Assembly (NCBI GenBank): GCA_030949385.1
Contig: JAUZSP010000006.1
Span: 64,121 to 128,120 of the forward strand
DNA length: 64,000 bases
Direction: 5' to 3'
Origin: Gammaproteobacteria bacterium
Lineage (GTDB): Bacteria > Pseudomonadota > Gammaproteobacteria > JAUZRS01
The position numbers and the translations under genes were made by a program. This document shows positions 8,681-34,886 of this stretch, piece by piece (the stretch's first letter is position 1; every line of letters starts with the position of its first letter). The notes under the pieces were generated by a model. It saw only the letters and a program-made list of their open reading frames with translations, was not told the origin of the DNA and searched no databases.

Positions 8681-10000
8681 TTAGGGTTGAAGATGACCGG
8701 CTGCGATTTTGGCGCTGCCGTAGGCTGCTTCAACCTGCGTTGAGAGCCGTAAAGGAACGTGCAGTGCGCGTTCGCGCAAGGTCTGCCACGCTGGATTAAT
8801 GGCTCCACCGCCTGCGCTGTAAATCTGGTGGGGGTAGGGTGCTCCCAATTGGGCTAAAAGTCGATAACCTTGCGCTTCAATGCGGCTCAAACCTTCTAAG
8901 ATGGCCTGTAAAAAGTGCTGCTGATTATCAGGGCGCGGTGAGAGCTGGGGCATTAAATCCGGGTTGGCAAGGGGAAAACGTTCGCCTTTTGAGGGCAGCG
9001 GGTAGTAGTGTAACCCGCTGGGTTTGCTGAGATCTATATTCTGGCTGAGGCGGATGAGTTCGTCGTCACTAAAAAACTGCTTAAGCACCCCAGCGCCGCT
9101 GTTGGACGCACCGCCCGCGAGCCAAAGATCACCCAGTCGATGGCTGTAGATGCCATGTTGTGGAGAAAAAAGAGGAGCAGGGGTGATGACTTTTAACACG
9201 GTGGTACTGCCCAAGGAGGTGACGGCATCGCCAATTTTGTGCGCGCCGCTGGCGATAAAGGCGGCGATGCTGTCGGTGGTGCCGCTGATGATCTGGGTGC
9301 TGTGATGCAGGCCAAACTGCTTGGTAATTTCAATTTTTGCAGTGCCAATGACGGTGCCAACGGGCGTGACCTTGGGCAGTGTCTGCAATTCAATGGGAAG
9401 CTGTTTTAACCACTCGGGCCAGCGACCGGTGATGGGGTCGTATCCTAATTTTAGGGCGTTGTTTTCATCGCTGTAGATGACGTTGCCGCTTAATTTGGCG
9501 GCGATCCAGTCCGCTTGGTGCAGTGCTTTGAAGGCGCGGTGGGGAATTCTGCTTTGCAGCGTCAGCAGTTTGGCTAGGCTACTGCTGGTGCCGTGAGCGG
9601 CGCTGTTTTTTGGGGCGTATTGGTGGATGAGCTGTGCGGCGGTGGCGTTGTCGCTGTGGTGGTACATCAGCGCGGGGGTGAGGGGGGTGCCATCCAGCGC
9701 ACTGAGCAGCAGGGTTGAGGAGGTGCCATCAACGGTAATGGCGCGGATGCGCTGAGCATCAACCTGTTGGAAAAGGTCGTACAGCAGTTGCTGTACGGTG
9801 TGCCACCAGATTAATGGATCTTGTTCCTCTTGTTGCTCTAAGGCCGCAGGCCAAGGCTGTTTTAAAAAAATCTGTTGTTGGCCTTGGCTGTCAATGACCG
9901 AGGCGCGACAGCCGGAAGTACCTAAATCCAGCCCCAGATAGAGCGCTTCTGAGTGGGGTTTTAGGGGCATGGGCGGGCTGCTCTCAAGATAGGAAAGCAA
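8681..10000 (-). CDS. FGGY-family carbohydrate kinase
   Basis: 439 aa with the N-terminal LGLDLGTSGCRA FGGY motif and C-terminal FGGY-like region. Confidence 0.65.
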   Translation of the reverse strand: MLSYLESSPPMPLKPHSEALYLGLDLGTSGCRASVIDSQGQQQIFLKQPWPAALEQQEEQDPLIWWHTVQQLLYDLFQQVDAQRIRAITVDGTSSTLLLSALDGTPLTPALMYHHSDNATAAQLIHQYAPKNSAAHGTSSSLAKLLTLQSRIPHRAFKALHQADWIAAKLSGNVIYSDENNALKLGYDPITGRWPEWLKQLPIELQTLPKVTPVGTVIGTAKIEITKQFGLHHSTQIISGTTDSIAAFIASGAHKIGDAVTSLGSTTVLKVITPAPLFSPQHGIYSHRLGDLWLAGGASNSGAGVLKQFFSDDELIRLSQNIDLSKPSGLHYYPLPSKGERFPLANPDLMPQLSPRPDNQQHFLQAILEGLSRIEAQGYRLLAQLGAPYPHQIYSAGGGAINPAWQTLRERALHVPLRLSTQVEAAYGSAKIAAGHLQP

Positions 10001-10022
10001 TGATTATAACACTCTGTGGAGG

Positions 10023-11261
10023 TTATAGGATCAGCATGGCCGCCACGGTCAGTGCCAGTAGGGCGATGATGCCGATTAAGATGGGGGTGAGATTTTTATT
10101 CTGTACGCCATTGCCGTTATTTGCCGCTGTGTTTGTTTTGGCTCGGTTGTTGAGCGCGGTTTTAAAGGTTTCAATCTCTTTGAAGCGTCTCATGCCTTGC
10201 GGTTGCAGTGCCTTGTCAATGGCATCGCAAAAGTGTTGGTTTAGATCGCTGCGTACGTTGTGTAGCGGAACGGCGATCTCTCTGGGTGGTGAGCCGGTGG
10301 CCATTTCATAAGCAATGGCTGCTAGAGAGTATTGATCGCTTTGCAGGGTGGCTGTTGAGGCATTGAGTCTCTGTTCGGGGGCTTTATAAAAAAGGGCTTT
10401 TTTGCTTGAACTGCTGGAGTTGATGCGGGCAAAACCGGACAGCTTGCTGTTGTTATGCACATCCAGCCAGATGTTTTTCGGGCTGATGTCACCGTGACTG
10501 CCCTGCTGGTGGACGTAACTGAGTGCGTCACAGAGGGGGTTGATGATCTCCAGTACTTCATTTTCTTGAAAGGGACTGTTCTGCTTTTGGCGTTGTGCGA
10601 TCAGTTTGCGCAGGCTTTTACCCTGCGATACTTCCATGCTGGCGTAGGTTAAATTTTGTTCGTGCTGAGCATCATAGATGTGCACTATGTTTTCATGTTG
10701 CAGTTCACTGGCGCGTTGAGCACTGTGAAAAAAGCTGACTTTGTCGCCGTCACTGACGTTGGGGTTCAAGACTCTGATGGCGATGTTTTCTCCGCGCCTG
10801 CTGTCACGCGCCAGATACAACTCGGATACTCGATCCTGGGAGAGAAAGGCTTTAATGCTGTAACGTTGGTAAGCCAATGTTTGCCCAACGGTAAGGTTTT
10901 TTCCAGCCGACTTTACGCTCGCTTTTTGTGTGCGTCGTTGAGTCGCGGGGGGCTGATTTTCGGTTAGGACAAAATCGAGTTTATGTGCGCGTTTAGGGCG
11001 CTTTTTGGGTGTGTGTTTTGTGTCTGTGCGTTGGCGGCGAATGTTGGCCAGAGCTTCGGCAATGTCGGGAGAGTCTCCGATGATGGTCTCGTCCAGATCT
11101 AGGCTGCTTTCTGCTGCTGGAGCGATTTTTCGGCTCGTTTTAGGTTGTGCTTTTCCATGGCGTATGTTGTTAAGAGCCGCTTCCAAATCTTGTGATTGTT
11201 GGCCAATAAGGGTTTCATCTAACTCTAAATCGATGTCTCCCTGTTTTGAGATTTTGTGCAT
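10023..11261 (-). CDS. Tail-anchored protein with a degenerate Ser/Thr protein-kinase-like domain
   Basis: 412 aa. Two N-terminal copies of a roughly 25-aa LDLDETxIGxxxxDxxEALxNIRxxR repeat. A kinase-like core with several degenerate motifs: no GxGxxG loop, VAIK lysine replaced (IAIRVL), HGD in place of HRD, SGFAR in place of DFG; the APE motif is retained. A single C-terminal TM helix (ILIGIIALLALTVAAMLIL). Confidence 0.6.
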   Translation of the reverse strand: MHKISKQGDIDLELDETLIGQQSQDLEAALNNIRHGKAQPKTSRKIAPAAESSLDLDETIIGDSPDIAEALANIRRQRTDTKHTPKKRPKRAHKLDFVLTENQPPATQRRTQKASVKSAGKNLTVGQTLAYQRYSIKAFLSQDRVSELYLARDSRRGENIAIRVLNPNVSDGDKVSFFHSAQRASELQHENIVHIYDAQHEQNLTYASMEVSQGKSLRKLIAQRQKQNSPFQENEVLEIINPLCDALSYVHQQGSHGDISPKNIWLDVHNNSKLSGFARINSSSSSKKALFYKAPEQRLNASTATLQSDQYSLAAIAYEMATGSPPREIAVPLHNVRSDLNQHFCDAIDKALQPQGMRRFKEIETFKTALNNRAKTNTAANNGNGVQNKNLTPILIGIIALLALTVAAMLIL

Positions 11262-11382
11262 AGCAGTTCCTGGCTAGGTCGATGTCTTGTGCTCATTCTC
11301 ACCCCGTGATCTTAAAAAATTCGGATTTGATTCATTAACAGCAAAGGTTAGGTTAAACGGTACTGTTTTGCTGATAAAAGTT

Positions 11383-11408
11383 GGCATTATTAATGCCTTG
11401 TTTTTTGT
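11383..11408 (+). promoter_or_regulatory. Perfect 7-1-7 palindrome GGCATTAtTAATGCC followed by a T-tract, in the divergent promoter region
   Basis: Seen directly in the sequence, 37 bp upstream of the ORF start at 11444. It could be an operator or a leader hairpin. Confidence 0.35.
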
Positions 11409-11443
11409 GCGTGTTAAATAATTGACTTGGGGAAAGTATAACA

Positions 11444-11806
11444 ATGAGTACACACGACGAGATAGATAAAGCCATTTCAGCACACGGCATGTGGAAACAT
11501 AAATTACGCAAAGCGATTGATTGCGGCGTATGTGATTCGACTCCTGACCGAGTCACGATGGATAACAACTGCGCCTTTGGCAAGTGGTTGCATGAGCGCA
11601 TTGATGCCCATGATAAGGGGTCTTCCTATTACAGTGAAATCGTTGATTTACACGCACAGTTTCATCGGGAAGCGGGGGCAATATTGGGTTTGGTATTAGA
11701 AGGTGATAACGCGGCTGCCAGTAGCCGAATGACTCTGACCAGTACCTTTTCCACTCTGTCGGGCAATTTGACTCGCACCATGAAGGCGTGGCAAACAACT
11801 CTTTGA
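11444..11806 (+). CDS. Stand-alone chemoreceptor zinc-binding (CZB) domain protein
   Basis: 120 aa with the H..C(A)FGKWL..H zinc-binding signature of CZB domains. Confidence 0.65.
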   Translation: MSTHDEIDKAISAHGMWKHKLRKAIDCGVCDSTPDRVTMDNNCAFGKWLHERIDAHDKGSSYYSEIVDLHAQFHREAGAILGLVLEGDNAAASSRMTLTSTFSTLSGNLTRTMKAWQTTL

Positions 11807-11850
11807 GAGTGATCTCTGTCCTTTTTTGTGAACAGAAAGTGAGCGATTTT

Positions 11851-12417
11851 TTATTCTTGCTCCAATAAAAGTGTGTTGTCTTTGGGCAGCGCCATCGTTT
11901 CAAGCTCGCTGGGGGCAGCGAGGGCAAAGCGTTGCTCGATGCTCTGTTGCAATTGTTGCATTTGGGATTCGACCAGTGTGTGGCTCTGTTCGTAGATGAG
12001 GGTTTTGGCTGTTAGGGAGGAGTCTATTAGGCTTTTTTGGCGTTGCTGTAAGGCATCCAATTGGCTTCGTTGGTAGTCGAAATTGCGGGTAATATCTTGT
12101 TCAATGGCTTTGCTGAACAGAGTGTGTGCGCTGCTTCCTTCTGGATGGGCATCCAGTTGTGCGGCTAGAGAGGGCAGTTTGTTTTGCATGTAGTTGTCGT
12201 TTTCTTCGATGAGCGAGGCGCTCATTTTTTCGTAATGCAGGTCGATTTTTTGGATCAGTTCCAGAGAACCGTGTTCGATCATTTGGAGGCGTTCTTGTGC
12301 CAGTTGATTGACGGTTTTGACCAGTTGAATCATTGAGTTTTGCAGTGCTTCTGCGCCTCTGAACTTGGCTTCTAGCAAGGCGGCTTCCATGCGTGTGTTG
12401 AACTCGATGAGCTCCAT
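11851..12417 (-). CDS. Coiled-coil hypothetical protein, possibly the C-terminal part of the upstream giant gene
   Basis: 188 aa, Q/E/L-rich. The upstream reading frame stays open across two A7 tracts toward the 642-aa ORF. Confidence 0.5.
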   Translation of the reverse strand: MELIEFNTRMEAALLEAKFRGAEALQNSMIQLVKTVNQLAQERLQMIEHGSLELIQKIDLHYEKMSASLIEENDNYMQNKLPSLAAQLDAHPEGSSAHTLFSKAIEQDITRNFDYQRSQLDALQQRQKSLIDSSLTAKTLIYEQSHTLVESQMQQLQQSIEQRFALAAPSELETMALPKDNTLLLEQE

Positions 12418-12629: not shown

Positions 12630-14558
12630 CTAAGCGGCGTTTGAGGTGAGGCTTTTTTTCATTTTATAGAGCAGTTGATTGAACTCTTTATTGCGCTGTT
12701 GCCGAGCGTTTGAGAATGCAAGGCTGTCTTGTAACAGGCTTTCTAGGGTCTGCTTTTCCAGTTCGCGGAATTTGTTAAGGATGAGGGTGCTCTGTTGGCT
12801 GGGTTGTTCAGTCAGGCTGCTGGCGCGGCTGAGGGTGTGTTGCAGCCAGCTTTCAGCCCATTGGTAGAAGGTTTCTTTGTGGCTGCTGTTTTCCAGCGCA
12901 AAGAGGCCTTTTTCCAGCTCAAGTTGCAGGGTGTGGGTCAGTTCGGTGCGTTTGATTTCCAGATCCAGTTGTTCAGCGTGTTTGCCGCTGCCGTTGAGGT
13001 CACACGCTTGGTGGATTTGTAAGCGTTCGATGGTGAGCAGGTGTTGCATCTGGTCTCGATGGGATTGCAGGGCGGTGAAGAGGGGGGCGGCTGCGTCGCA
13101 ATGCAGTTGTTCGTTTAAGAGCAGCTCCATCAGCGTTTGTAGTTTGGTTTCCAGTTTGGCGTGAAAATCGAGCCATTCTTGTTGCCAGACGGTTGTGAGG
13201 TCATGGTCGATCAGTTCCTCTTGGCAACGCTGTTGAAAATCGGGCAGGTGCTGGGTTTGACGCTGTTGGCTCTGTTTTAACCAGGCTTGATGCTGTTCGA
13301 TGAGCAGTGTGACGCTGTTTTGGTGTTGGCTGTACCAGTCGATTTTTTGCCGTTGTTCATCGATCAATTGAATGCTGTAATCGGCGACCACTTCAAATCT
13401 TGGGCAAGGTTGCTGTTGCAGTTCATAAAGAGCATTCAGTGGGTTTTTTTCGATCTGTTGCAGTTTGTGCTGTAGCTGAGTGACATCGTCTTGCAGTGCG
13501 GCCAATTTTTTTTCTGTGCTGTGCAGTTTAAAATCAAGGTGTTGCTGTAAAAAACGTTGTCGTGGGGCGCAGTCGTCGGGCAGTTCTGCGGGTGCTTGTT
13601 GCAGTTGTTGGTTGATGTGGTGCAGTTCTGCGAAGAGTTGGGGGTGATCTGTTTGTGCGCTTAAAAGATCGTTGTTTAAGTCATTCAGCCAGCGTTGCAA
13701 ACCTGCTGCGTAGGCGCTGGGGGTTGCGTCAATTTCGGTGCTGGAGTAGTGCTGTTTGCGTTCGCTGTGGTTGAGGCCGTTGAAAGGGGTGGTGTTGTTG
13801 ATGTCTTCGATCTGCTGTTCAAGTTGATCCTGTTGTTGTTCCAATTGAAATATCTGCATGCATTGCTGATAGGTTTGCTGGAGTTGTTCGGTTTTTTCGC
13901 CTTCAAATTCCAGCTGCCACTGTTGCTCGGTAAAAAACATGAGTCGTTTTTGGGTGTAGGTTTCTACAGCCTCTTTAGATTGATCGTGCTCTTGTGGTGG
14001 AGTGAAATTTAGATCGGCGAAGGCAAGATGACAGAGAAAGAGATAAGGGAGGTCGATTGCTAGTGGGTTGTCTGTTGTGAAGTTTGTGATATCCATATAG
14101 CCCGTTTCGGTAACGAGGTGAGAGTAAGATTGACCGTTTTTTTGTTGGAGTCTGGGGTCATCACTGATTAAAAAAGTCTTCGTCAAAAAAGGCAGTGTTT
14201 TATCTTCTAATGCAAAGCGCAGTTGTGCGGCGGTAGGAAGTTGCCATGTATCGCGGTTATCTAGGGTGATTGTTTTCAGATTAGTTTGGTGTGGCTGTTT
14301 TTCTATGTAGGCCTTTTCCAGTTCAGGCATATTATGTTTCTTTAAATTAGGCCAAAGCAGACCTCTGTGGCTGTCAAAAATAATGTCAGGGTGGTTGCCT
14401 ATGAACCACCAGCGTTGCTCGTGAATGCGTTCTAGCAGTGATTCGAGGTTGTCGTCGTCAATGTCGTTGAGATTGTCCAGCGTGTTTTTGATTTCAGCGA
14501 GCTGTTGTTGCAATTGATTTTTTTGAGTTTTGTTCGGCTGGGATGGGCTGGATGACAC
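12630..14558 (-). CDS. Large Q-rich coiled-coil hypothetical protein
   Basis: 642 aa with no recognisable catalytic motifs. Extended heptad-like Q/L/E-rich regions. Confidence 0.6.
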   Translation of the reverse strand: MSSSPSQPNKTQKNQLQQQLAEIKNTLDNLNDIDDDNLESLLERIHEQRWWFIGNHPDIIFDSHRGLLWPNLKKHNMPELEKAYIEKQPHQTNLKTITLDNRDTWQLPTAAQLRFALEDKTLPFLTKTFLISDDPRLQQKNGQSYSHLVTETGYMDITNFTTDNPLAIDLPYLFLCHLAFADLNFTPPQEHDQSKEAVETYTQKRLMFFTEQQWQLEFEGEKTEQLQQTYQQCMQIFQLEQQQDQLEQQIEDINNTTPFNGLNHSERKQHYSSTEIDATPSAYAAGLQRWLNDLNNDLLSAQTDHPQLFAELHHINQQLQQAPAELPDDCAPRQRFLQQHLDFKLHSTEKKLAALQDDVTQLQHKLQQIEKNPLNALYELQQQPCPRFEVVADYSIQLIDEQRQKIDWYSQHQNSVTLLIEQHQAWLKQSQQRQTQHLPDFQQRCQEELIDHDLTTVWQQEWLDFHAKLETKLQTLMELLLNEQLHCDAAAPLFTALQSHRDQMQHLLTIERLQIHQACDLNGSGKHAEQLDLEIKRTELTHTLQLELEKGLFALENSSHKETFYQWAESWLQHTLSRASSLTEQPSQQSTLILNKFRELEKQTLESLLQDSLAFSNARQQRNKEFNQLLYKMKKSLTSNAA

Positions 14559-16406: not shown

Positions 16407-16551
16407 GTTTTAGCACACTGGTCATCAAACGGAAAGAGTGCGGTATTTTATTTGTGAATGACGTACAATTTGCGCGCCTAGATTGGCTCCTTTTTGTTGC
16501 TGTCAAAGCCGTCCACCTTCCATTTAAAACCGCTGGGGAAAAGTGTAACGA

Positions 16552-18014
16552 TGCGTATTTTATTTGTTGCCAGTGAAGTTCATCCGTTGATTAAAACCGG
16601 TGGTTTGGCCGATGTTGCCGGTCATTTGCCTCCGGCGCTGCTGGCGCAAGGTGAAGAGATTCGGATTGTGATGCCCGCCTATCGTGCCGCACTGCAAGGA
16701 TTAGAGCAGATTGAGGTGGTGGCGGAGTTGTTTCTATTGGGAGCAGCCCAGCCGGTAGAAATTTTGCAAAGCATCTTGCCGGGTACGGCGGTGCCGATCT
16801 ATTTGGTTCGTTGTCCACAATATTTTGATCGTGAGGGCGGTCCTTATGCCGACAGCGAGGGCAATGATTGGACGGACAACGCGGCTCGTTTTACCCTTTT
16901 TGCCCGTGCAGTGGTTGAGTTGGCGCAAAATCGAGCGGCTTTGGAATGGCAGCCGGATTTGGTGCATTGCAATGATTGGCAGACAGGGTTGGTGCCCGCG
17001 CTGCTCAAATGTGAGGCCGTTGCGCCGAAAACGTTGTTTACCATTCATAATTTGGCTTATCAGGGATTGTTCTCTTGGCAGAGCTTCCAATCGTTGCAGT
17101 TACCCCGTGATCTTTGGGGGTGGAGGCAATGGAGTTTTACGGCAACTTTTCTTTTATGAAAGGCGGCTTGGTTTATGCCGATCACCTCTCTACGGTTAGT
17201 CCTCAATACGCTGAGGAAATTTTAACCCCAGAGTACGGTTACGGTTTGGAAGGGTTGCTGAGCAGTCGTGCTGGATGATCTGTCGGGCATTTTGAATGGA
17301 GTGGAGTATGAGATATGGAACCCAGAGCACGATGAAGCCATTGCGGTTAATTACGGTGTGGATAGTTTGGCGCTGAAGTCCGAAAACAAACGTGCGTTGC
17401 AGCGTGAGTACCGTCTTGATGAAGAGCCAGATAAACCGCTGATTGTCTATGTGGGGCGTTTGGCGGATCAAAAAGGGGTGGATCTGATTCTGTCGGGATT
17501 GCCGTCGATGGTGGAGCACTTGGGAATGCAGGTGCTGCTGCTGGGCAGCGGTCGGCGTGACCTTGAAGAGGCGTTGTGGGTCGTGGGGGATCGTTATCCT
17601 GGACAAGTGGCGACCTATGTGGGTTTCAGTGAAGATCGAGTGCATCGCATTAAAGCAGGAGCGGATATGTTCCTGATGCCGTCTCGGTTTGAGCCTTGCG
17701 GTCTGAATCAGATTTACAGCTTGCGTTACGGGGCAGTGCCGATTGTGCGAGCGGTCGGCGGGTTGGTGGACACGGTGGTGGATGCGTCTCCTGATGCAGT
17801 GGAGAAGGGCGTTGCAACGGGTTTTCACTTCGGCTCTGCCAATGCCGGTGATATGTTGTATTGCGTGGGACGCGCGTGCGAGCTTTACCGTGATAAACCA
17901 AATTTATGGCGTAACTTGATGCTGAATGGCATGCAGCAGGATTTCAGTTGGCAGCAGGGTGCCAAGCATTATTGCGATTTGTATCGCCGGATTGTGAGTC
18001 AGAAAAAAGCATAA
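16552..18014 (+). pseudogene. glgA: Glycogen synthase glgA interrupted by two frameshifts (or assembly indels)
   Basis: N-terminus MRILFVASEVHPLIKTGGLADV (KTGGL motif) in one frame. The middle segment [31 protein letters not shown] is in a second frame, after the G5 run at 17116-17120. The C-terminal part (..LSGILNG..EPCGLNQIY..) is in a third frame from about 17271. Confidence 0.75.
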
Positions 18015-23731: not shown

Positions 23732-24799
23732 ATGGCCAGCATTGAGAAGCGCACCAGCAAAGAGGGAGTGGTCTCCTATCGGGTCAAAGTGAGGTTGAAA
23801 GGCTACCCAATACAAACGGCCTCTTTTGAACGGCGTACCGATGCCAAAAAGTGGGCGCAGCAAACAGAGGTCGCCATTAGGGAAGGGCGACACTTCAAAA
23901 CCCGAGAGGCCAAACGGCATACTTTTAATGAGCTGGTGAAGCGGTACATAAAAGAGGTGGTGCCACGCAAGCCCAAAGCGGGGGCATACGATCACAGTTA
24001 CCAACTCAGGTGGTGGGCTGATCAAATCGGGGATTGTGTGTTGGCGGACGTTACAGCGGCTTTACTGACAGAGACGCGGGACAAACTGGCCAATATACCC
24101 ACAGTGAATGGGCAGAGGGCAGCCGCTACGGTGAACCGCTATCTTGCCTCTGCAAGCCATGCGTTTACGGTTGCGGTGAAAGAGTGGGGATGGCTGGAAG
24201 ATTCGCCCATGCGGAACGTGAGTAAGTTTAAGGAGCCACGGGGACGGGTGCGCTATTTGAGTGAAGAAGAGCGGCCTAGGTTTCTTGCTGCTTGCCGAGA
24301 GAGCAGTAATCCATACCTGTACCCCGTTGTTGTTCTGGCACTCTCCACCGGAGCGAGAAAGATGGAGATATGTTCCCTTTCTTGGGCGGCCATCGACCTT
24401 AAGCGTGATGCTCCACAGATCGTTTTACATGAAACAAAGAACGGTGAGCGGCGTGTTTTGCCCCTAACAGGCCATGCTTTGGAGCTGGTGCGTGATTTGG
24501 CCAAAGTTCGGCGCATTGATACCCCGTTGCTTTTTCCGAGCTTGAAGAATCCCAGTAAGCCGATGGGCATTAGAGCGCCGTTTCTCAGAGCGTTGGCAAA
24601 GGCTGAAATAGAAGATTTTCACTTCCATGATTTGAGACACAGCGCGGCCAGTTATCTGGCCATGGACGGTGCCAGCATGGCGGAGATAGCGGAGGTTCTA
24701 GGGCATAAAACCCTACAGATGGTGAAACGCTACAGCCACCTTTCAGATGCACACACGGCCAGTGTGGTGGCTTCCATGAATGCCAAGATTTTTGGATAA
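23732..24799 (+). CDS. int: Tyrosine recombinase / phage-type integrase
   Basis: 355 aa. The C-terminal catalytic region has ..HDLRHSAASYLAMDG..LGHKT..MVKRYSH (R...HxxR...Y). The gene sits immediately 3' of the tRNA. Confidence 0.85.
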   Translation: MASIEKRTSKEGVVSYRVKVRLKGYPIQTASFERRTDAKKWAQQTEVAIREGRHFKTREAKRHTFNELVKRYIKEVVPRKPKAGAYDHSYQLRWWADQIGDCVLADVTAALLTETRDKLANIPTVNGQRAAATVNRYLASASHAFTVAVKEWGWLEDSPMRNVSKFKEPRGRVRYLSEEERPRFLAACRESSNPYLYPVVVLALSTGARKMEICSLSWAAIDLKRDAPQIVLHETKNGERRVLPLTGHALELVRDLAKVRRIDTPLLFPSLKNPSKPMGIRAPFLRALAKAEIEDFHFHDLRHSAASYLAMDGASMAEIAEVLGHKTLQMVKRYSHLSDAHTASVVASMNAKIFG

Positions 24800-25051
24800 G
24801 CCTCATTAAGGAAAAAATGCTAATGGCTACGGATAAAAATAAAAATGACCCGTTAGAAAGCCCCATTCTTTGTAGGGGCATGATTCATTACGCGGGGGGA
24901 AAACCCAGAAGCGGCTCAGAATTTATACCTCTTAGCTTCTGAAAAATTAAAGCGTTCTGAATCATTACCATCTAGCTTATCCGAATGGCTTGGGGAGATA
25001 TTAGAGAACTTAGCCTTCTGTGATAGGGAGAATAGGGGAGCAATCCGAAAG

Positions 25052-25384
25052 GTGGTGAAGTTGAATGCTAAAAATGGGGGGCAAAGAAAAAATAGTGAAC
25101 TAGGGTCAAAGATCGCCCGTATACAACATCAACATAAATGCAGTGTTTTAGGTGCTTTAGAGATTGAGGCAGAACAAAATCTCAATGAAGAAGGCAAACA
25201 ATCCGATCATAAAGACCTTCCAGTTGATACTTTACACAAAGCATTTTATAACAAAAATAATACACATCGAGAGGATTGCCGCTTTGTTAAAGCGGTATTA
25301 GAGCAAAAGACCCCATATCATTTCAGAGTGAAAAAAATTCTTTCAATTCTTCAACAAATCGCGATTAAAAAAACAATGGAATAA
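25052..25384 (+). CDS. Hypothetical protein in an AT-rich stretch of the island
   Basis: 110-aa ORF. The local AT-richness departs from the chromosomal composition. Confidence 0.35.
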   Translation: MVKLNAKNGGQRKNSELGSKIARIQHQHKCSVLGALEIEAEQNLNEEGKQSDHKDLPVDTLHKAFYNKNNTHREDCRFVKAVLEQKTPYHFRVKKILSILQQIAIKKTME

Positions 25385-25485
25385 GGGTGTCAGGTTTCTT
25401 CTATTTTTACTAGACAGGCATTTAGCCATACTCCAGCACAACACGGCATAAGCCGCGTTATTTTTAATAATTACTGGAGCTTTAA

Positions 25486-25722
25486 ATGGAACATAGAAGT
25501 TTTTTAACCGTCCCTCAATTCAGCGTTAAACATCCCGCTTTTACCCAATCAAGCCTAAGAGGCTTAATCTTCAACGCCAAAAGTCGGCAGAGCAGCCAAG
25601 GGATGATTGAAGGCAACGGCTTAGCCCCTGCCATTATTCGCATTGGTCGCAAAGTCTTAATTGATGAAGAGAAGTTTTTGGCTTGGGTGGACAACCACCA
25701 GCAAAACGGCCAAGCGGCATAA
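25486..25722 (+). CDS. alpA: AlpA-family phage transcriptional regulator / excisionase-like HTH protein
   Basis: 78 aa. TVPQFSVKH...IRIGRKVLIDEEKFLAWV matches the AlpA/MerR-type HTH of prophage CP4-57-like regulators. Confidence 0.65.
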   Translation: MEHRSFLTVPQFSVKHPAFTQSSLRGLIFNAKSRQSSQGMIEGNGLAPAIIRIGRKVLIDEEKFLAWVDNHQQNGQAA

Positions 25723-25730
25723 GGGGGAAG

Positions 25731-26105
25731 ATGATGAATAAAAAACTGCCAAAGGATGGGGTTGCAACTCCACCCAGTGACCGGCACAACATCACAGTAC
25801 AGCGACTGAACCCCGAGTTTATCCCGCCACGGCTTGATGATAAAGAGGTTATTTCTGGTGCAGTCCATACCACGCTGGCCGGTTTCCCAAACATTGACCC
25901 CAAGGTAGTGCGGTACTACTCCAAAAAGCTGGCCTCTGTTGGCTGGAAGTTGGCGGCTTACGTTTGGAGTGAAGGTACAAAAGGCATTATTAGGATGCCG
26001 GTGGGGACTGAACCCTCTCCCTCTTTGCTGGTGGAGAAATACGGGCTGTTTCGAGGGCGGTTAGAGGCAGAGCTTTTAGGCTCCCAGAATGGAGGTCATA
26101 TCTAA
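25731..26105 (+). CDS. Hypothetical protein on the island
   Basis: ATG at 25731 preceded by AAGGGGGAAG, giving a 125-aa ORF. No recognisable motif. Confidence 0.4.
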   Translation: MMNKKLPKDGVATPPSDRHNITVQRLNPEFIPPRLDDKEVISGAVHTTLAGFPNIDPKVVRYYSKKLASVGWKLAAYVWSEGTKGIIRMPVGTEPSPSLLVEKYGLFRGRLEAELLGSQNGGHI

Positions 26106-26130
26106 TGGTTAATAGATTACTTACCTTGCC

Positions 26131-26375
26131 TTGTCACACTGCCACGCTTAAAAAACCATTTACAAAGCACCTCATATTTATAGGGATTTTAAATAGTATT
26201 AATGTGAGGTGTGATGATTTTCAGAGTGATTTTTTTCACTTTGCTGTTAAAAGGTGGCGTGACAGGCGTGACGGCGTGACAGATCAAAAAAATATATTAA
26301 TTATCAATAGGATAGGTGTGTTTTTGAGTGTCACGCTACGGGTGTGCCACGCCGTGACAGGCGTGACAGATTGCG
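26131..26375. repeat. Left copy of an imperfect inverted repeat of about 245 bp that contains GCGTGACRG iterons and an AT-rich spacer (origin-like)
   Basis: About 90% identical to the reverse complement of 29861-30098. Contains 3 tandem 9-mers GCGTGACAG/GCGTGACGG/CGTGACAGA at 26257-26283, an AT-rich 40 bp, then an inverted TGTCACGC and two more GCGTGACAG copies. Confidence 0.8.
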
Positions 26376-26762
26376 CGATAAGGGGCTTGCTGTTCTGTGT
26401 TAGAGAAGTTTCTGCCGCTTATAAAGGGGCGCGAGCTGGAGCCGTTGCAGAAGTTTTTGCCGCTTATAAAAAGGGAAAGGGGTTGACCACCCGCACTGTG
26501 AAGCCCTATCCTTGCCGTTCCTCTGCACAATCAGAGGACGGGGTTCGCAACCCGAGCAATACCAAGCCGCACCAGCACCGGCCTCAAACCGTGCTTTTTT
26601 TGTGTAAGTCCGTTTGTTCTTTATGGCGGATTGTGTGGGGCAGCTTTCGGGCTGGCCGGTTCCCTTGGTTTCCGGTAGTGCGAACCCCATACAATCTGCC
26701 ACCCTTAAACCGCTTCGTAACGGTCGGTGGCAGCTTCCTAAATTACCAAGGAGCTTGTCATT

Positions 26763-27005
26763 ATGCTTAACTTATCCCCTCCCAATCCGTCTACCCGTTG
26801 CAGTCACGCGCCTGTTGAGGTGGTGGTTTATACGGTCTGTGTTACGTCTCTTTCTCGTTCTGGTGGGCGTACCACGCGCCCTGTATCGCGTTATTTCTCT
26901 TCCCGTATTGGCGCGTTTACCTCCTTTGATCCAGACCCCGACTACTTGGCGTGGTATCACGATCTGCTTTTGCTGGATTCCGCTTTGGCAGGGGGTGGCC
27001 TGTGA
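26763..27005 (+). CDS. Small ORF that may be translationally coupled to the primase gene
   Basis: 80-aa ORF whose TGA (27003-27005) overlaps a candidate GTG start of the primase frame (ctGTGAag). No motif recognised. Confidence 0.25.
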   Translation: MLNLSPPNPSTRCSHAPVEVVVYTVCVTSLSRSGGRTTRPVSRYFSSRIGAFTSFDPDPDYLAWYHDLLLLDSALAGGGL

Positions 27006-29173
27006 AGCAGAAAATAGACTTTCAAGCCATCAACCAATCGGCCATAAACAATGCGGTAAGTGTGCTTAACCATTATCTTCCTGATGGGACAAGCAGTGGC
27101 GGTGAGTACACGGCGTTAAACCCAACACGGGAAGACAGTAAAAAGGGCAGCTTTTCGGTTAACACCCAAAGTGGCCGGTGGTCTGACTTTGCCACAGAGG
27201 ATAAAGGTGGGGATCTGATAAGCCTGATAGCCTACCTAAACGGCACTAAACAGGGTGCAGCGGCCAAAGAGTTGTCCCAGTTTTTGGGGCTGTCAGAGGT
27301 CAACCACAGCAGCCAAAAGAAAACCGCCACGGTGGCGCAATCGAGCAAGCACCCCCCCGCTGAATGGGCACCTTGTTTGCCGGTTCCCAACGATGCACCC
27401 GCACCTCATGAGGAACATTCCCGTTTTGGTAAACCGTCAGGCCGTTGGGTCTATCGGGATGAACAAGGGGCGGTGCTGTTTTATATGTACCGTTTTGAGC
27501 AAGAGGGCAAAAAGAAGAGCTACGCGCCGTTGAGTTACGGCAATTATGGCGCGGGGTGTTTGCACTGGAAGTGGAAGGGTATTCCAGCACCCCGCCCCCT
27601 CTATCATCTTGACCAACTGGCAGCCAAGCCAAAGGCCAAGGTGGTGATCTGTGAGGGTGAAAAAGCAGCGGATGCCGCTCAATACCTTTTGCCGGATTGG
27701 GTCGCCGTTACCCCACCCAATGGGGCGCAATCACCGGATAAGGCCAATTGGTCGCCCTTAAAAGGTCGGGATGTGATGATTTGGCCAGACAATGACAAAG
27801 CCGGTGCCGCGTTTGCGGATCGGGTCAAGGCGCTGGTGGAGGGTGTCGGGGTTAAGTCGGTCGCTTTGTTGGTGGTGCCGTTTGCCTTTGGTCTCGATGG
27901 TGACGGCCTTAAGCCCGTGGCCGGTGATGGCTTTGCAGAGAAGTGGGACGCGGCGGACGCAGAGGCCGAAGGCTGGCAGCCAATGCACCTTAAACAGTTG
28001 ATCCAAAAAGCGGAGTGTGTGCGGGTGACTGCCCTCTCTGTCACGGTGAAGAGGGAAGGCAGAAAGAGACCGATTAAGGGTTCAACCTTTGGCCATAACT
28101 TCAAAGTGAAAGAGAGCGGTGTGTGGTTTCATCCACCATCAGAAGACCAACAGGACGCACCTAAGCCCATATTGATTTGTGACCGGCTGATGGTGAGTGC
28201 CAGAACACGGGACACGCACGGCGAAAGCCACGGGCGGCTGTTGGAATTTGTAGATTCAGACGGTGTACCGCACCAGTGGGCGATGCCTATGGAGATGCTG
28301 GCCGGTGATGGCTTGGAGGTCAGAAAGCGGTTGATGTCCCAAGGTTTAAGTGTGGCGCAGAGCCGCAAATCACGGGATCTGTTGGGCATGTACATACAGA
28401 CGCAACAACCGAAAGACAAGGCGCTCTGTGTGGATCGTATCGGCTGGCATGGTGGGGCATTTGTTTTGCCTGACAAGGTGCTGGGACAGAAAGAGGGTGA
28501 TCGGGTGTTGTTGCAGGCTCCAAGAAGAGAAGACCCTGTGTTCTCTCAAAAAGGCAGCCTTGCAGAGTGGCGGCAGCAGATAGCGGCGTTGTGTCTGGGC
28601 AATTCACGTTTGCTGTTTGCGGTCAGTTTGGGTTTTGCTGCCAGTGTGTTGAAGCCGTTAATGGAAGAGTCGGGCGGTTTTAATATTCGTGGTGCCAGTT
28701 CTACCGGAAAAAGTACGGCGCTACGGGTGGCGTGCAGTGTGTGGGGTGGAGCCAATCGGATGCAGCGGTGGAGAGCCACCGGTAACGGCCTTGAAGGGGT
28801 GGCCTCGATGCACAACGATACCCTTTTGTGCTTGGATGAATTGGGGCAGGTTGAACCACGGGAAGCGGGTGAAATTGCCTACATGCTGGCCAACGGTGCC
28901 GGTAAGCAGCGCAGCCGAAGGGATGGCAGCAGTGCAGCGGTAAAAGAGTGGCGGCTGTTGTTTCTTTCAGCCGGTGAGGTGGGTTTAGCGGAACAGATGC
29001 GCCAAGGCGGTAAGCGGGTCATGGCCGGTCAAGCGGTGCGAATGGTGGATATTCCAGCGGATGCGGGGCGTGGCTTGGGGTTATTTGAAGACGTTGAACG
29101 GCCACCGTTCTGGCGGCCATCTTTCAAAGGCGTTATCGGCTGCCACCCAAAAGGCTTACGGTACAGCAGGTGA
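26951..29173 (+). CDS. Phage/plasmid primase-helicase: N-terminal zinc-binding-like region, Toprim domain, P-loop (DUF927 / SF3-like) NTPase
   Basis: 740 aa. Toprim motifs (VVICEGEKAAD ... DNDKAG). Walker A GASSTGKST and Walker B LLCLDELG. The protein appears to continue in another frame at 29061-29789, implying a frameshift. Confidence 0.75.
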   Translation: MVSRSAFAGFRFGRGWPVKQKIDFQAINQSAINNAVSVLNHYLPDGTSSGGEYTALNPTREDSKKGSFSVNTQSGRWSDFATEDKGGDLISLIAYLNGTKQGAAAKELSQFLGLSEVNHSSQKKTATVAQSSKHPPAEWAPCLPVPNDAPAPHEEHSRFGKPSGRWVYRDEQGAVLFYMYRFEQEGKKKSYAPLSYGNYGAGCLHWKWKGIPAPRPLYHLDQLAAKPKAKVVICEGEKAADAAQYLLPDWVAVTPPNGAQSPDKANWSPLKGRDVMIWPDNDKAGAAFADRVKALVEGVGVKSVALLVVPFAFGLDGDGLKPVAGDGFAEKWDAADAEAEGWQPMHLKQLIQKAECVRVTALSVTVKREGRKRPIKGSTFGHNFKVKESGVWFHPPSEDQQDAPKPILICDRLMVSARTRDTHGESHGRLLEFVDSDGVPHQWAMPMEMLAGDGLEVRKRLMSQGLSVAQSRKSRDLLGMYIQTQQPKDKALCVDRIGWHGGAFVLPDKVLGQKEGDRVLLQAPRREDPVFSQKGSLAEWRQQIAALCLGNSRLLFAVSLGFAASVLKPLMEESGGFNIRGASSTGKSTALRVACSVWGGANRMQRWRATGNGLEGVASMHNDTLLCLDELGQVEPREAGEIAYMLANGAGKQRSRRDGSSAAVKEWRLLFLSAGEVGLAEQMRQGGKRVMAGQAVRMVDIPADAGRGLGLFEDVERPPFWRPSFKGVIGCHPKGLRYSR

Positions 29174-29789
29174 GGCGTTTATTAATGGCTTGTTGCCCTT
29201 GGGTGATCTGGTGCCCGTTGTTGAGGGGTTACAGGCGGACTTCCTTAAGGGTCTGCTTCCAGATGAAGCCGATGGTCAGGTTCACCGTGTGGCGGGTCGT
29301 TTTGCGTTGGTGGCGGCGGCGGGTGAGCTGGCCACTCGATTTAAGATCACCGGCTGGCCAACAGGTGAGGCCAGTAAGGGAGTAAAGAGCTGCTTTAACG
29401 ATTGGTTAAAAGAGCGCGGCGGTCACGGAGCACAGGAAGAGAGAGAGGCTTTAAAACAGGTTCGCCACTTTATCGAGGTTCACGGGGAGTCGCGGTTCTC
29501 TCCTTGGGTGCAAGATGAGCGATACCGCAGCACCAGCAACCGAGCGGGTTTCCGTAAGCACTTGGAGGGTGGCGGGGTGGAGTATTACATTTTGAGAGAA
29601 AGCTTTAAGCGTGACGTGTGTGACGGCTTGGATTGGCGTTTTGTTGTCGAAGTCTTGAAAAAACACGAATGGCTTGTTCTGGATTCAAAAGGGGGAGCGA
29701 CACGCCCCGAACGCTTGCCAGAAGGAGGCCGTCAGCGGTGTTACCGTTTAAAAATTCCTGAGCTGGTGGAGATGCGCGCAGTTTCATAG
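29061..29789 (+). pseudogene. Frameshifted C-terminal continuation of the primase-helicase (DUF927 C-terminal region)
   Basis: The frame is open from 29061 and overlaps the end of the 740-aa ORF. The sequence ..AGRFALVAAAGELATRFKITGWPTGEA.. resembles the conserved C-terminal part of DUF927 primase-helicases. The frame switch lies near 29100-29125. Confidence 0.55.
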
Positions 29790-29860
29790 GGTTATGTTGG
29801 ATTGGTTCGACGGGACTTAAAAGCGGCTATTTGGCCGTTTTTTTGTGCCCATGACAAAAT

Positions 29861-30098
29861 CTGTCACGCCTGTCACGCCGTGACACACCCGTAGCGTGAC
29901 AGCCAAAATAGCATATAACATATTGATATTAAATAAGTTATTTGGATCTGTCACGCCGTCACGCCTGTCACGACACCTTTTAGCAGCAAAGTGAAAAAAC
30001 CAATCTGAAAATCCTCACACCTCACATAAATACTATTTAAAATCCCTGTAAATATGAGATGCTTTGAAAATGGTTTTTTATGTGTGGCAGTGTGACAA
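29861..30098. repeat. Right, inverted copy of the roughly 245-bp iteron-containing repeat
   Basis: Reverse complement aligns with 26131-26375 at about 90% identity. TGTCACGCC iterons at 29861-29902 and 29948-29972 flank an AT-rich spacer. Confidence 0.8.
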
Positions 30099-30202
30099 AT
30101 AAACTGCTTTAAGGTACTAGGTAGGGAATTTGGTTTGCGGGTAATTCGAACCCCGCTTAGACGTTATTTACCACCTTATTCAAAATAAACGGGTTCGGGG
30201 CA

Positions 30203-30451
30203 TTAGCCTACCTTGCGGATTTCTTCACGAATAACGCGGCGTAGAACAGCCTCTAATGGTTCTTTGCCCTCTACGCTTTGGATGTGTTGTTGTAGGGCTG
30301 CATTAATCAGTGATTGATAGTTACCACCACCGGCCACTTGATCCCGAAACCATTGCACCACGTCACTGTCAAGACGGATGGTGATTCGTTCCTTATTGCT
30401 TTGGATCACAGCGCCCCGTTGGGCGTTATTGAAGTCGTAATGTTCTCTCAT
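30203..30451 (-). CDS. brnA: BrnA antitoxin (RHH/DUF4415) of a type II toxin-antitoxin pair
   Basis: 82 aa. ..ERITIRLDSDVVQWF..GGNYQSLINAAL.. matches the BrnA family. It starts 4 bp after the brnT stop. Confidence 0.7.
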   Translation of the reverse strand: MREHYDFNNAQRGAVIQSNKERITIRLDSDVVQWFRDQVAGGGNYQSLINAALQQHIQSVEGKEPLEAVLRRVIREEIRKVG

Positions 30452-30454
30452 GGC

Positions 30455-30727
30455 TTAGCCCTCGTACTGTTTGCGTTCTTGCCTATTGGCCTTTCTGGCA
30501 GAGATGATGCGGATAACATCCCCTATTTTGTGCAGGTTTACCACCAGCAAAACACGCCCTTGAAAATCCATGCCAAGCGTTAAGAGGCGCGCCTCTTGGT
30601 GGTTGTGATCTGGGTCGGTTTGGGTCAGTGCCATATCATCGTAAAAGACTCCCACCGCATCGGCAAAATCCACACCGTGCTTATTTAGGTTGGTGTGGCG
30701 TTTGTTTTCATCCCATTCAAAGTTCAT
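30455..30727 (-). CDS. brnT: BrnT ribonuclease toxin (DUF497)
   Basis: 90 aa. MNFEWDENKRHTNLNKHGVDFADAVGVFYDD matches the canonical BrnT N-terminus. Confidence 0.75.
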   Translation of the reverse strand: MNFEWDENKRHTNLNKHGVDFADAVGVFYDDMALTQTDPDHNHQEARLLTLGMDFQGRVLLVVNLHKIGDVIRIISARKANRQERKQYEG

Positions 30728-30920
30728 GGGTTGAGTGTATGCCGGTTGTGCATACAGTCAAGTATCCTTTAGATGGGGTGGTGTTACTGCCCTGTGGGGC
30801 ACTCATGGGACACTAGACCAGCAAAAACAGGGGTAAACGTGAACAAGTGGAAACAATGGGTTGCCATTAACTTATTGATTTAATTCTTTTTTTATTGTTC
30901 TTGGTTGTTCTGGATTATTC

Positions 30921-30973
30921 GTTGTTCGAAACTTTTAATTAGGTGGTCGAAGGTTCGAATCCTTCACGGCCCA
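30921..30973 (+). repeat. attR: second copy of the 53-bp tRNA-Lys 3'-half repeat
   Basis: ACTTTTAATTAGGTGGTCGAAGGTTCGAATCCTTCACGGCCCACCATATTTTT; 52/53 identical to 23318-23370. Confidence 0.85.
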
Positions 30974-34859: not shown

Positions 34860-34886
34860 TTAATCGCTGATTGATGAGCAAAAAAA

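Follow-up and report, generated by a model that had tools for sequence, protein, structure and literature searches.

The gene on the minus strand at positions 10023..11261 of the window, the 64,000-nucleotide stretch of contig JAUZSP010000006.1 that was analysed, very probably encodes a maintained, membrane-anchored pseudokinase that is predicted to be non-catalytic. On balance, we lean towards a fuller explanation in which this tail-anchored protein arose from receptor kinases and partners its active paralogues. The gene was taken from the open reading frame list and its Pkinase match, and it comprises 412 codons and a stop (10023-10025). Its ATG start is preceded by a Shine-Dalgarno sequence, AGGA, lying 6 nt upstream (11268..11271, minus strand), and the same sequence was read at loci L001, L002, and L006. 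The 412-aa product was 100% identical to the NCBI MAG protein MDQ7075020.1.

We found that Pfam PF00069 (Pkinase) matched residues 145-342 with E=6.2e-23 (82 bits against a cut-off of 31.7), and the top PDB sequence match was M. tuberculosis PknB (E=5.8e-20). In the AF2 model, a confident kinase domain (pLDDT >90) stands between a disordered N-terminus and a terminal transmembrane (TM) helix, and the best Foldseek matches of the model were PknB, Stk1, PknI, and PknA (target TM 0.72-0.88). The HMM match, the PknB alignment, and the predicted structure thus agree with the initial annotation that the protein has a Hanks-type (eukaryotic-like) kinase fold, which is predicted with confidence. The domain was delimited to aa 126-372 (10146..10886, minus strand), including a lead-in segment GQTLAYQRY, from Pfam, the alignments, AF2, Foldseek, and a dN/dS of 0.066-0.084. 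Weak Pfam matches (UTP15_C, DUF2824) and NCBIfam matches (MADS6, LanL, PglW) lay far under their cut-offs and were rejected as generic kinase similarity or noise.

The catalytic motifs were placed by three independent alignments, a HMMER pairwise alignment to PknB and MAFFT alignments of 10 and 225 sequences, which agreed on one register; no mis-registration restores the Lys or the DFG Asp. In place of the Gly-rich loop, which had been reported as absent, a degenerate SQDRVS (aa 141-146; 10824..10841, minus strand) aligns to PknB GFGGMS, and the first two Gly columns of this loop contain Gly in 183/220 and 211/220 of the other kinases in the 225-sequence alignment. The VAVK segment has become IAIR, with codon AGA (10773..10775, minus strand) placing Arg163 in the column of the beta3 (VAIK) Lys, as had also been proposed. 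A Lys-to-Arg change at this position is a standard kinase-dead mutation. Two losses missing from the initial annotation were noted as well, the alphaC Glu being replaced by S180 and the catalytic-loop Lys by S260. The DFG motif is replaced by S-G-F-A (aa 275-278; 10428..10439, minus strand), with Gly276 for the Asp and Ala278 for the Gly; the earlier reading of SGFAR for DFG was right, with the detail that G276, not S275, fills the Asp column. For the 220 other kinases of the 225-sequence alignment, the same columns contain Lys in 211, Glu in 213, and Asp in 214. The claim that HGD replaces HRD (aa 256-258; 10488..10496, minus strand; three alignments) held in part: the Arg is lost, but HGD alone does not abolish the catalytic base because Asp258 is kept. 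Also kept are N263, the APE motif (E296), as had been stated, the alphaF D309, and the subdomain XI R359, and the activation loop, rich in Ser, lacks about 12 residues relative to that of PknB.

Considered as a Hanks kinase, the protein is thus missing the Gly-rich loop, the beta3 Lys, the alphaC Glu, and the DFG Asp, all of which belong to the criteria for competence, while the catalytic Asp of HRD and the catalytic-loop Asn are both there (D258, N263). The sequence definition of a pseudokinase is the lack of at least one of VAIK-Lys, HRD-Asp, and DFG-Asp (bacterial STK atlas, bioRxiv 10.1101/2025.01.12.632604). Two of these three residues are missing in all five known orthologues (five sequence clusters), in which all of the catalytic-motif substitutions were invariant. 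The reading frame was unbroken in every lineage, and the dN/dS in the N-terminal repeats was 0.13-0.26, with dS reaching up to 1.6. The invariance of the substitutions and the kinase-domain dN/dS of about 0.07 therefore argue for a maintained, non-catalytic protein.

Because Asp258 and Asn263 are strictly kept, and the nucleotide pocket contains Arg144 and Arg163, the protein might bind nucleotide in some non-canonical way. The protein could be an atypical, ligand-competent kinase fold in which Arg163 and Arg144 bind ATP or a different nucleotide without any metal, with Asp258 and Asn263 providing weak or unusual catalysis or with the nucleotide controlling a conformational switch. The HxD Asp, catalytic-loop Asn, APE motif, alphaF Asp, and subdomain XI Arg, all invariant in the orthologues, are consistent with this, and AF3 models in the literature point to ATP binding by the K-to-R families ActPs2 and DYD, with an arginine-based, ULK4-like mode suggested for DLHK (PMC12599244). 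However, four elements have gone together here: every glycine of the Gly-loop, the Lys of beta3, the Glu of alphaC, and the Asp of DFG. DYD keeps an Asp at the DFG position, and the second Asp of its motif pairs with the beta3 Arg, where the window protein has G-F-A. We consider nucleotide binding of this kind unlikely.

The regions flanking the pseudokinase domain were then characterized. The two acidic repeats reported ahead of the domain, each of about 27 aa, self-align at a score of 66, compared to 20.5 ± 4.1 for shuffled sequences (0/2000 as high). Repeat 1 (aa 9-35; 11157..11237, minus strand; self-alignment and AF2) consists of the acidic motif DIDLELDETLIG and a short helix, DLEAALNNIR, which AF2 places at residues 24-35 with low pLDDT. 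In repeat 2 (aa 51-78; 11028..11111, minus strand; self-alignment, AF2, and conservation), the motif SSLDLDETIIG is followed by the helix PDIAEALANIRRQR. Both T17 in repeat 1 and T59 in repeat 2 are invariant. A basic linker (aa 79-125; 10887..11027, minus strand) with a calculated net charge of +9, pLDDT <50, and an invariant LDFVLTEN connects the repeats to the kinase domain. At the other end, the single C-terminal TM helix of the initial annotation (aa 391-412; 10026..10091, minus strand) was recovered by both Kyte-Doolittle analysis (19-residue maximum of 3.0 at 394-412) and AF2 (helix 392-411), and the protein ends at L412 with zero residues beyond the segment. This is the sole hydrophobic segment of a protein without an N-terminal signal or any other Pfam domain, and by sequence and model the protein fits the criteria for a tail-anchored membrane protein, its insertion being predicted. 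An inactive scaffold or sensor tethered to the membrane had been suggested. The tail-anchored scaffold is the best supported part, with inactivity predicted, and the sensor reading is unsupported because there is no ectodomain at all.

Downstream of the pseudokinase gene lies an FGGY-family sugar kinase gene (8681..9973, minus strand; Pfam FGGY_N and FGGY_C), separated by about 50 nt with the ATG at 9973 as start codon or by 22 nt with the TTG at 10000. The two genes are probably co-transcribed, since the terminator scan recorded no terminator-like site between them. When the FGGY neighbour was used as a query, both as a single sequence and as a three-sequence alignment, two metagenome scans found no relatives. 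The order pseudokinase-FGGY-CysZ(EI24)-M23, on one strand, was the same in L001-L004, and control of cell-wall enzymes by Hanks kinases is common in other phyla. The pseudokinase could therefore be a membrane regulator of its own operon, acting on the FGGY sugar kinase, CysZ, and the M23 peptidase, and such a role would be tied to carbon-storage or envelope functions because the cluster adjoins pgi and glgA. The downstream genes, however, have unrelated housekeeping functions, and the region from glgA through pgi and beyond is collinear in closely related genomes, so that the conserved order is non-specific evidence. An operon-bound role thus appears improbable.

On the opposite strand, a stand-alone CZB gene (11444..11806, plus strand; Pfam CZB E=5e-11, above the gathering score) is divergent from the pseudokinase gene across a 182-bp intergenic region, as the initial annotation had described. 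The same layout was found in L001, and from this arrangement the two products could be envisaged as a zinc-responsive signalling pair. The neighbourhood is not conserved, though: CZB is absent at L002, L003, L004, and L006, loci with pgi immediately ahead of the pseudokinase gene and with that gene and the upstream blocks unbroken. The adjacency is true but carries little functional weight, and a zinc-responsive pair is very improbable.

Two non-coding blocks were recovered by comparing the loci. The first, directly upstream of the gene (11262..11333, minus strand), has about 92% identity between lineages with a coding dS of 1.2-1.6 and is likely a promoter or 5'UTR; the sigma70 scan gave no convincing promoter for the pseudokinase gene, and no Rfam family matched 9900-11900 at E<=1. 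The second (11380..11415, not assigned to a strand) contains the palindrome GGCATTAATAATGCC (11383-11397), a candidate operator, and was found at all pseudokinase loci with retrieved upstream DNA (the window, L001-L004, and L006), including those that lack CZB. That the gene is a functionless, decaying kinase remnant, or that its degenerate motifs are an alignment artefact, as the loss of several catalytic residues and the long branch of the family might suggest, has a negligible probability given an omega of about 0.07 at dS up to 1.6, a frame unbroken everywhere, invariant substitutions in one register across three independent alignments, and a conserved ribosome-binding site and upstream region.

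We sought relatives of the pseudokinase exhaustively among 1.84 billion representatives with HMMER, and one family cluster (883 bits) was recovered, followed by generic kinases at no more than 282 bits. The family is one small clade of uncultured sulfur-oxidising Gammaproteobacteria, with sequences known only from uncultured vent or sediment MAGs. It forms a long branch inside the active FGE-sulfatase/TM kinases, with a stem branch of 0.30 and a root-to-tip distance of about 0.74, compared to 0.64 ± 0.03 in the active relatives (NJ tree). The tree did not resolve the active sister subgroup, and the long branch joins at the family base, a placement that is probably due to long-branch attraction; the naming of a closest relative therefore rests on pairwise scores. 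By these, the active kinase P0072 has 38% identity over 270 aa of the kinase region with distinctive segments in common, and the active P0160 has 29% identity over 387 aa, the N-terminal region included. Queried by itself, the N-terminal 129-aa segment matched nothing, not even the parent proteins, which was taken as an index limitation rather than an absence.

The active relatives have a Pkinase and FGE-sulfatase architecture, and many are annotated as 'bifunctional serine/threonine-protein kinase/formylglycine-generating enzyme'. Matched by description (TM and FGE-sulfatase), their family is apparently 'Proteo1' of the bacterial STK atlas, a proteobacterial family with C-terminal TM, FGE-sulfatase, or DUF4384 architectures and family-specific constraints (bioRxiv 10.1101/2025.01.12.632604). 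The pseudokinase would have descended from such gammaproteobacterial receptor kinases, whose parent architecture would run from an N-terminal helical domain through acidic Thr motifs, the kinase, a TM helix, and a coiled coil to an FGE-sulfatase ectodomain. The parental N-terminal domain and everything past the TM helix would have been lost, together with the Gly-loop, the beta3 Lys, the alphaC Glu, the catalytic-loop Lys, and the DFG Asp, and the protein has since been retained under strong purifying selection.

The same MAGs encode a soluble kinase of about 500 aa, and at least one MAG also encodes a 1103-aa receptor kinase, both of them intact. This co-occurrence was established through sister MAGs: assembly JAUZRS01 holds L005 and L008, all three paralogues are in CAZTQX01 (L006, L009, and L011), L003 and L010 share read set SRR5189950, and MDQ7075020.1 and MDQ7075572.1 are nearby accessions under one MAG name. 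Only a handful of closely related MAGs are involved, so both co-occurrence and synteny are statistically weak. The three paralogues lie on different contigs and are not neighbours, and the paralogue loci, examined for signs of co-regulation, lacked the upstream palindrome and conserved block. The soluble, P0160-type proteins have no TM segment and end in an amphipathic basic peptide with a muH of 0.59-0.68, compared to 0.45 for the MinD membrane-targeting sequence.

An acidic motif, D-x-[DN]-[EK]-T-hydrophobic-hydrophobic-G, is common to the pseudokinase and both active paralogue groups. By regular expression on the 322 retrieved proteins, it was matched 48 times in 284 pre-kinase regions (1.3 ± 1.2 expected), and all 48 matches fell in the pseudokinase, P0160-type, and P0072-type groups. 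It is similar to the lead-in strand, L-x-x-G-Q-T-L, that precedes the kinase domain in this family. FHA domains commonly read the +3 position, and the retrieved loci showed no FHA-domain gene. The T6SS threonine-phosphorylation pathway (PpkA/PppA/Fha/TagF), in which the kinase gene accompanies those for a PP2C phosphatase, an FHA protein, and the T6SS core, was also considered and rejected: TagF_N and PP2C ORFs occur in the window, 22 kb from the pseudokinase gene and beside a transposase and a type I R-M system, with no FHA or T6SS core gene seen near the pseudokinase. At PknA-dependent phospho-Thr sites of M. tuberculosis, acidic residues are enriched at -1 and -3 to -6 and hydrophobic residues at +3 (PMC7164672). 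The pseudokinase motif differs from these sites in having Gly or Ala at +3.

The preferred reading, that of a tail-anchored pseudokinase partnering active paralogues, would hold the cytoplasmic body of the protein at the inner membrane by its C-terminal anchor. There it would act jointly with the paralogues of the same genomes (the ~500-aa kinase and, in at least one MAG, the 1103-aa kinase). The active kinases may recognise the two acidic motifs as phospho-acceptor or docking sites, and the unbroken fold could offer a membrane-fixed binding platform, whether as scaffold, allosteric partner, or decoy. We infer the lack of catalysis, the phosphorylation of T17 and T59, and any physical interaction with the paralogues; the role is most likely that of a membrane scaffold, regulator, or substrate for them. 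That the acidic motif is the means of this partnership is a tentative proposal. Rather more doubtful is a lineage-specific, three-paralogue Ser/Thr module in which the FGE-sulfatase receptor kinase, a peripheral soluble kinase, and the tail-anchored pseudokinase are wired by the shared motif. In such a module, the previously undescribed motif would be a trans-phosphorylation or strand-docking site, and the pseudokinase would recruit or gate the active kinases at the membrane.

Bacterial pseudokinases are largely unexplored experimentally, and seven families have been catalogued (2025 review, PMC12599244). Going by the published defining motifs and architectures of these families (ActPs1-3, GLW, CP1, DYD, DLHK), the window protein fits none of the seven. 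The DYD pseudokinases are similarly membrane-associated, with Arg for the beta3 Lys (R163 here), no alphaC Glu (S180 here), and a kept HRD Asp, but they are actinobacterial and firmicute proteins with D-Y-D for DFG (PMC12599244), whereas G-F-A without an Asp was found here in a gammaproteobacterial MAG. GLW proteins have G-L-W for HRD and poly-Leu/Trp for the beta3 Lys (PMC12599244), in contrast to HGD and IAIR. ActPs2 is actinobacterial and defined by the K-to-R change, an Asn for the HRD Asp, a DFG deletion, and large insertions (PMC12599244). Only the K-to-R change is common to both, the window protein keeping Asp258 and having no insertions and a shortened activation loop. CP1 and DLHK are cytosolic proteins without TM segments, fused to COG3899 and to DEAD-like helicase/DNA2 domains, respectively (PMC12599244), unlike a protein with a terminal TM helix and no further Pfam domain.

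The best sequence neighbourhood is that of canonical Hanks kinases of Proteobacteria that have a C-terminal TM, an FGE-sulfatase domain, or both, and that include P0072. The lead-in GQ[TS]L..GRY, the ENIW continuation of the catalytic loop, the DQY[AS]LA alphaF motif, the TM helix after the kinase domain, and a gammaproteobacterial host are common to both; however, these kinases keep all catalytic residues and their periplasmic domains, while the pseudokinase is degenerate and ends inside the membrane. Tail-anchored S. coelicolor PkaB/SCO2973 and SCO3860 also lack a signal peptide and have one C-terminal TM, which suffices for membrane targeting (PMC3087755). They are active actinobacterial kinases, in contrast to a degenerate protein with nothing past the helix. 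No sequence relationship to YukC/EssB of the type VIIb secretion system was detected, nor does the pseudokinase have a T7SS context, and EssB also has an extracellular domain. YukC/EssB is likewise a pseudokinase anchored in a bacterial membrane, and its role is structural rather than catalytic (PMC9600267).

A pseudokinase paralogue of an active kinase and a tail-anchored STK are each already established, so no new kind of system is proposed, and the reach of the findings is limited to five sequence clusters, all from uncultured vent or sediment MAGs. Within this scope, the family would show a pseudokinase that emerged independently and recently out of a canonical family of proteobacterial receptor kinases, with the active parents still in the same genome. 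It would be a compact natural case of a bacterial receptor kinase stripped to a membrane scaffold, predicted to be non-catalytic, and the shared short motif provides a concrete handle on cross-talk between kinase and pseudokinase. The closest solved structures are the kinase domains of M. tuberculosis PknB and PknI, which have the same fold at 24-27% identity, although PknB is fully active and has PASTA ectodomains. It was also noted, by eye, that the position of PknB L33 in the back-to-back dimer interface is Arg in both the pseudokinase and P0160.

The 412-aa product of the minus-strand ORF at 10023..11261 (ATG start, AGGA at 6-nt spacing), here called the pseudokinase, was matched by Pfam Pkinase over residues 145-342 (E=6.2e-23, 82 bits; cut-off 31.7), and M. 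tuberculosis PknB was its top solved relative by sequence (E=5.8e-20). The AF2 model, from an input alignment of 69 sequences, reached pLDDT >90 over residues ~120-380, with a mostly disordered N-terminus, in which helices 24-35 and 65-78 are of low confidence, and with residues 392-411 forming a terminal helix. Foldseek against the PDB matched PknB, S. aureus Stk1/PknB, PknI and PknA (target TM 0.72-0.88). An identical NCBI MAG protein (MDQ7075020.1) bears no annotation beyond 'serine/threonine-protein kinase [Gammaproteobacteria bacterium]', and a six-frame phmmer search found no second Hanks-type kinase encoded in the 64-kb window.

The motif register was taken from a HMMER pairwise alignment, a 10-sequence MAFFT alignment and a 225-sequence MAFFT alignment, which are independent and agree. 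Compared to PknB, the Gly-rich loop GFGGMS is replaced by SQDRVS, VAVK of the beta3 strand by IAIR (R163), the alphaC Glu by S180 and the metal-binding DFG by G276-F-A, while the Ser-rich activation loop is ~12 residues shorter than the full-length PknB loop. The catalytic loop HRDVKPAN reads HGDISPKN, keeping D258 and N263 and losing the HRD Arg and the loop Lys; the APE Glu, alphaF Asp and subdomain XI Arg are also kept (E296, D309 and R359). The corresponding columns in other kinases of the 225-sequence alignment held K in 211/220, E in 213/220 and D in 214/220. The fold searches and concordant alignments confirmed the degenerate motifs described in the initial annotation, with two adjustments. 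SGFAR does replace DFG, with G276 and not S275 holding the Asp column; HGD does lose the Arg of HRD, but this change alone spares the catalytic base, and the argument for inactivity is therefore founded on the ATP- and metal-binding elements. The substitutions were invariant in 5/5 orthologues, except for S/T at position 180, and the protein thus combines a kinase fold with the loss of the canonical ATP- and Mg-binding residues, a state that is conserved.

Ahead of the kinase domain, residues ~9-35 and ~51-78 gave a local self-alignment score of 66, against 20.5±4.1 in shuffles (0/2000 reaching 66), which bears out the two acidic repeats seen earlier as a genuine duplication. In each repeat an acidic Thr motif (DIDLELDETLIG in the first, SSLDLDETIIG in the second) precedes a short helix whose last residues are NIR; a basic linker follows (aa 79-125, charge +9) with an invariant LDFVLTEN. 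A variable Asn/Thr-rich linker joins the kinase domain to segment 391-412 (Kyte-Doolittle 3.0), where the protein ends. Because signal peptide and ectodomain are both lacking, a tail-anchored topology is predicted, with the last 22 residues as the anchor; the single C-terminal TM helix first proposed thus holds, matching the terminal AF2 helix. Such topology is already documented in bacterial Ser/Thr kinases, e.g. PkaB (PMC3087755). A sensor role, also suggested initially, found no support, there being no ectodomain.

A few matches in the exhaustive search extended into the N-terminal region, among them P0072 and P0160. P0072 (1103 aa) has an intact kinase (GxGxxG, VALK, HRD and DFG all present) and five acidic Thr motif copies, and also carries a TM helix, a coiled coil and, C-terminally, an FGE-sulfatase domain. 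Over 270 aa of kinase region it was 38% identical to the query and had distinctive segments in common with it. P0160 (505 aa), whose kinase is likewise intact, has two motif copies and no TM segment, and its alignment with the query spans 387 aa, N-terminus included; its C-terminus is an amphipathic basic peptide (muH 0.59-0.68 vs 0.45 for the MinD membrane-targeting sequence). A motif-core regex gave 48 matches in 284 pre-kinase regions (1.3±1.2 expected), all confined to the pseudokinase, P0160-type and P0072-type groups. In assembly JAUZRS01 the pseudokinase (L005) is accompanied by a P0160-type kinase (L008); in CAZTQX01, where the pseudokinase is at L006, all three groups are represented, with a P0160-type kinase at L009 and the 1103-aa receptor kinase at L011. 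A further orthologue locus (L003) and paralogue locus (L010) both derive from read set SRR5189950, and the query and P0160 have nearby accessions and one MAG name. Judged by the regex counts, the N-terminal motif is non-random and common to the pseudokinase and the two active paralogues whose genomes it shares.

The wider P0160 family comprises gammaproteobacterial kinases, many of which bear a bifunctional kinase/FGE annotation, a profile that fits how the bacterial STK atlas describes 'Proteo1'. By eye, the acidic motif LELDETLIG resembles the family's pre-kinase lead-in (LELNQTLINGRY in P0160, LTVGQTLAYQRY in the query). Many active relatives (P0072, P0160, P0096, P0154, P0162 and ~50 other retrieved kinases) share a conserved N-terminal helix, xEAL.vLGL...AS...i..AY, which recalls J-domain helices I-II with no HPD motif seen; this domain had no match in Pfam and is absent from the pseudokinase. 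Directly upstream of the active ~500-aa paralogue lies a cluster (L008 1-7610, L009 96-6271) of Fer4/Pyr_redox, NrfD, CbiA-type and IscA-like genes, which we take, from domain content, to be dsrL/J/O/P/N/R-like; such a cluster beside the paralogue indicates a sulfur-oxidising gammaproteobacterial host. At L011 8803-9882 (plus strand), a gene for a 359-aa protein that Pfam does not match begins 11 nt past the 1103-aa FGE-sulfatase receptor kinase, and its product may be a partner of that kinase. An unrelated match, P0025 (467 aa), has HGH for HRD and EFG for DFG, keeps the beta3 Lys, carries its TM after the kinase domain and also looks like a pseudokinase.

We propose that the pseudokinase does not phosphorylate and would be a membrane-fixed partner of the active paralogues, as scaffold, allosteric partner or decoy substrate, with its invariant T17 and T59 as putative acceptor or docking sites. 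The membrane scaffold of the initial annotation, predicted to be inactive, is supported. PknA-dependent sites show an upstream acidic preference and a hydrophobic +3 (PMC7164672); the motif, acidic at -1, -2, -4 and -6, recalls the former, whereas its Gly at +3 is a misfit with the latter. The trio and its common motif form a clean, testable hypothesis, limited in reach by a tiny, uncultured clade and by concepts already established. One rival, which appears unlikely, is a nucleotide-binding switch that would operate through R163 and R144 with the retained D258 and N263; reviews propose something similar for ActPs2, DYD and DLHK.

Seven bacterial pseudokinase families have been defined by the atlas and review. 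DYD has K->R and alphaC Glu loss in common with the pseudokinase, but neither its defining D-Y-D motif nor its Gram-positive host is found here. GLW shares a proteobacterial host and C-terminal TM, but has GLW/LLLL in place of HGD/IAIR. CP1 and DLHK are cytosolic multidomain proteins, unlike the pseudokinase, and ActPs1-3 reportedly miss the HRD Asp kept here as D258; ActPs1 and ActPs2 are described as actinobacterial. Given these mismatches, the protein falls in none of the seven and is best described as a small pseudokinase offshoot, independently derived, of a canonical proteobacterial receptor-kinase family.

The pseudokinase gene is followed on its own strand by genes for an FGGY sugar kinase, CysZ and an M23 peptidase. 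For FGGY the probable start codon is the ATG at 9973, ~50 nt past the pseudokinase stop; no terminator-like site lies between the two genes, and the four-gene order is identical in L001-L004. As glgA, pgi and genes beyond are also collinear, this order comes from close relatedness and speaks only weakly for coupling, and a role tied to the FGGY-CysZ-M23 operon appears unlikely. Pairing with the divergent stand-alone CZB zinc-sensor gene (11444..11806, plus strand) is considerably less plausible still: the gene noted initially is real, but its linkage is not conserved, since it was found only in L001 among related loci, and its absence in one lineage leaves it little weight. Between CZB and pgi are a 188-aa gene (11851-12417, minus) and a 642-aa Gln-rich gene (12630-14558, minus), neither with a significant family match; both are specific to the window and absent from L001-L004, which looks like a lineage-specific insertion. 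Glycogen synthase glgA is present as two plus-strand ORFs (16494-17159 with Glyco_transf_5, 17268-18014 with Glycos_transf_1) ~108 nt apart, whereas L001 and L002 each have it as one gene (487-489 aa); the split reflects a frameshift/pseudogene or else an assembly error.

The pseudokinase relatives formed only five 90%-identity clusters among 5.8 billion proteins (75-100% identity), all from uncultured Gammaproteobacteria, e.g. an Arctic Mid-Ocean Ridge MAG. The exhaustive HMMER scan, which covered 1.84 billion representatives, showed the family as one 50% cluster (883 bits); the next matches were generic kinases, none above 282 bits. Nei-Gojobori estimates from four independent coding sequences gave omega of 0.066-0.084 in the kinase domain and 0.13-0.26 in the repeat region, with dS up to 1.6. 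These values mark a strongly constrained protein and not a decaying gene, and make a dead remnant scarcely credible. In the NJ tree, the clade has a long stem (0.30) and a root-to-tip distance of ~0.74 vs 0.64±0.03 in active relatives, consistent with a burst of change once catalysis was lost.

Within the ~180 nt upstream of the pseudokinase, two blocks were conserved far above synonymous sites: a ~72-nt block (11262-11333) abutting the start codon, and 11380-11415, which contains the palindrome GGCATTAATAATGCC at 11383-11397. The conserved DNA recurs at L001 7866-7956, L002 7866-7956 and L006 1887-1977, and neither the palindrome nor the ~72-nt block is present at paralogue loci. Rfam gave no match for either block, and no clear sigma70 promoter was seen in this upstream DNA.

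An apparent genomic island spans ~23732-41481, with a phage-type integrase (23732-24799), a DUF927/Toprim protein (26951-29173), a BrnT/BrnA toxin-antitoxin pair (30203-30727), MsrA (31072-31782), a DDE transposase (31826-33028) and a complete type I R-M system, HsdM/S/R (35235-41481). It also holds a plus-strand TagF_N gene (33299-34078, E=8e-49) overlapping, in a different frame, a plus-strand PP2C phosphatase gene (33996-34859, E=4e-10). No T6SS core genes were seen near the pair in the window, and the two genes resemble a TagF-PppA-type unit from the T6SS threonine-phosphorylation pathway that is orphaned or possibly frameshifted. As a phosphatase, the PP2C may have a bearing on Ser/Thr signalling in the host genome.
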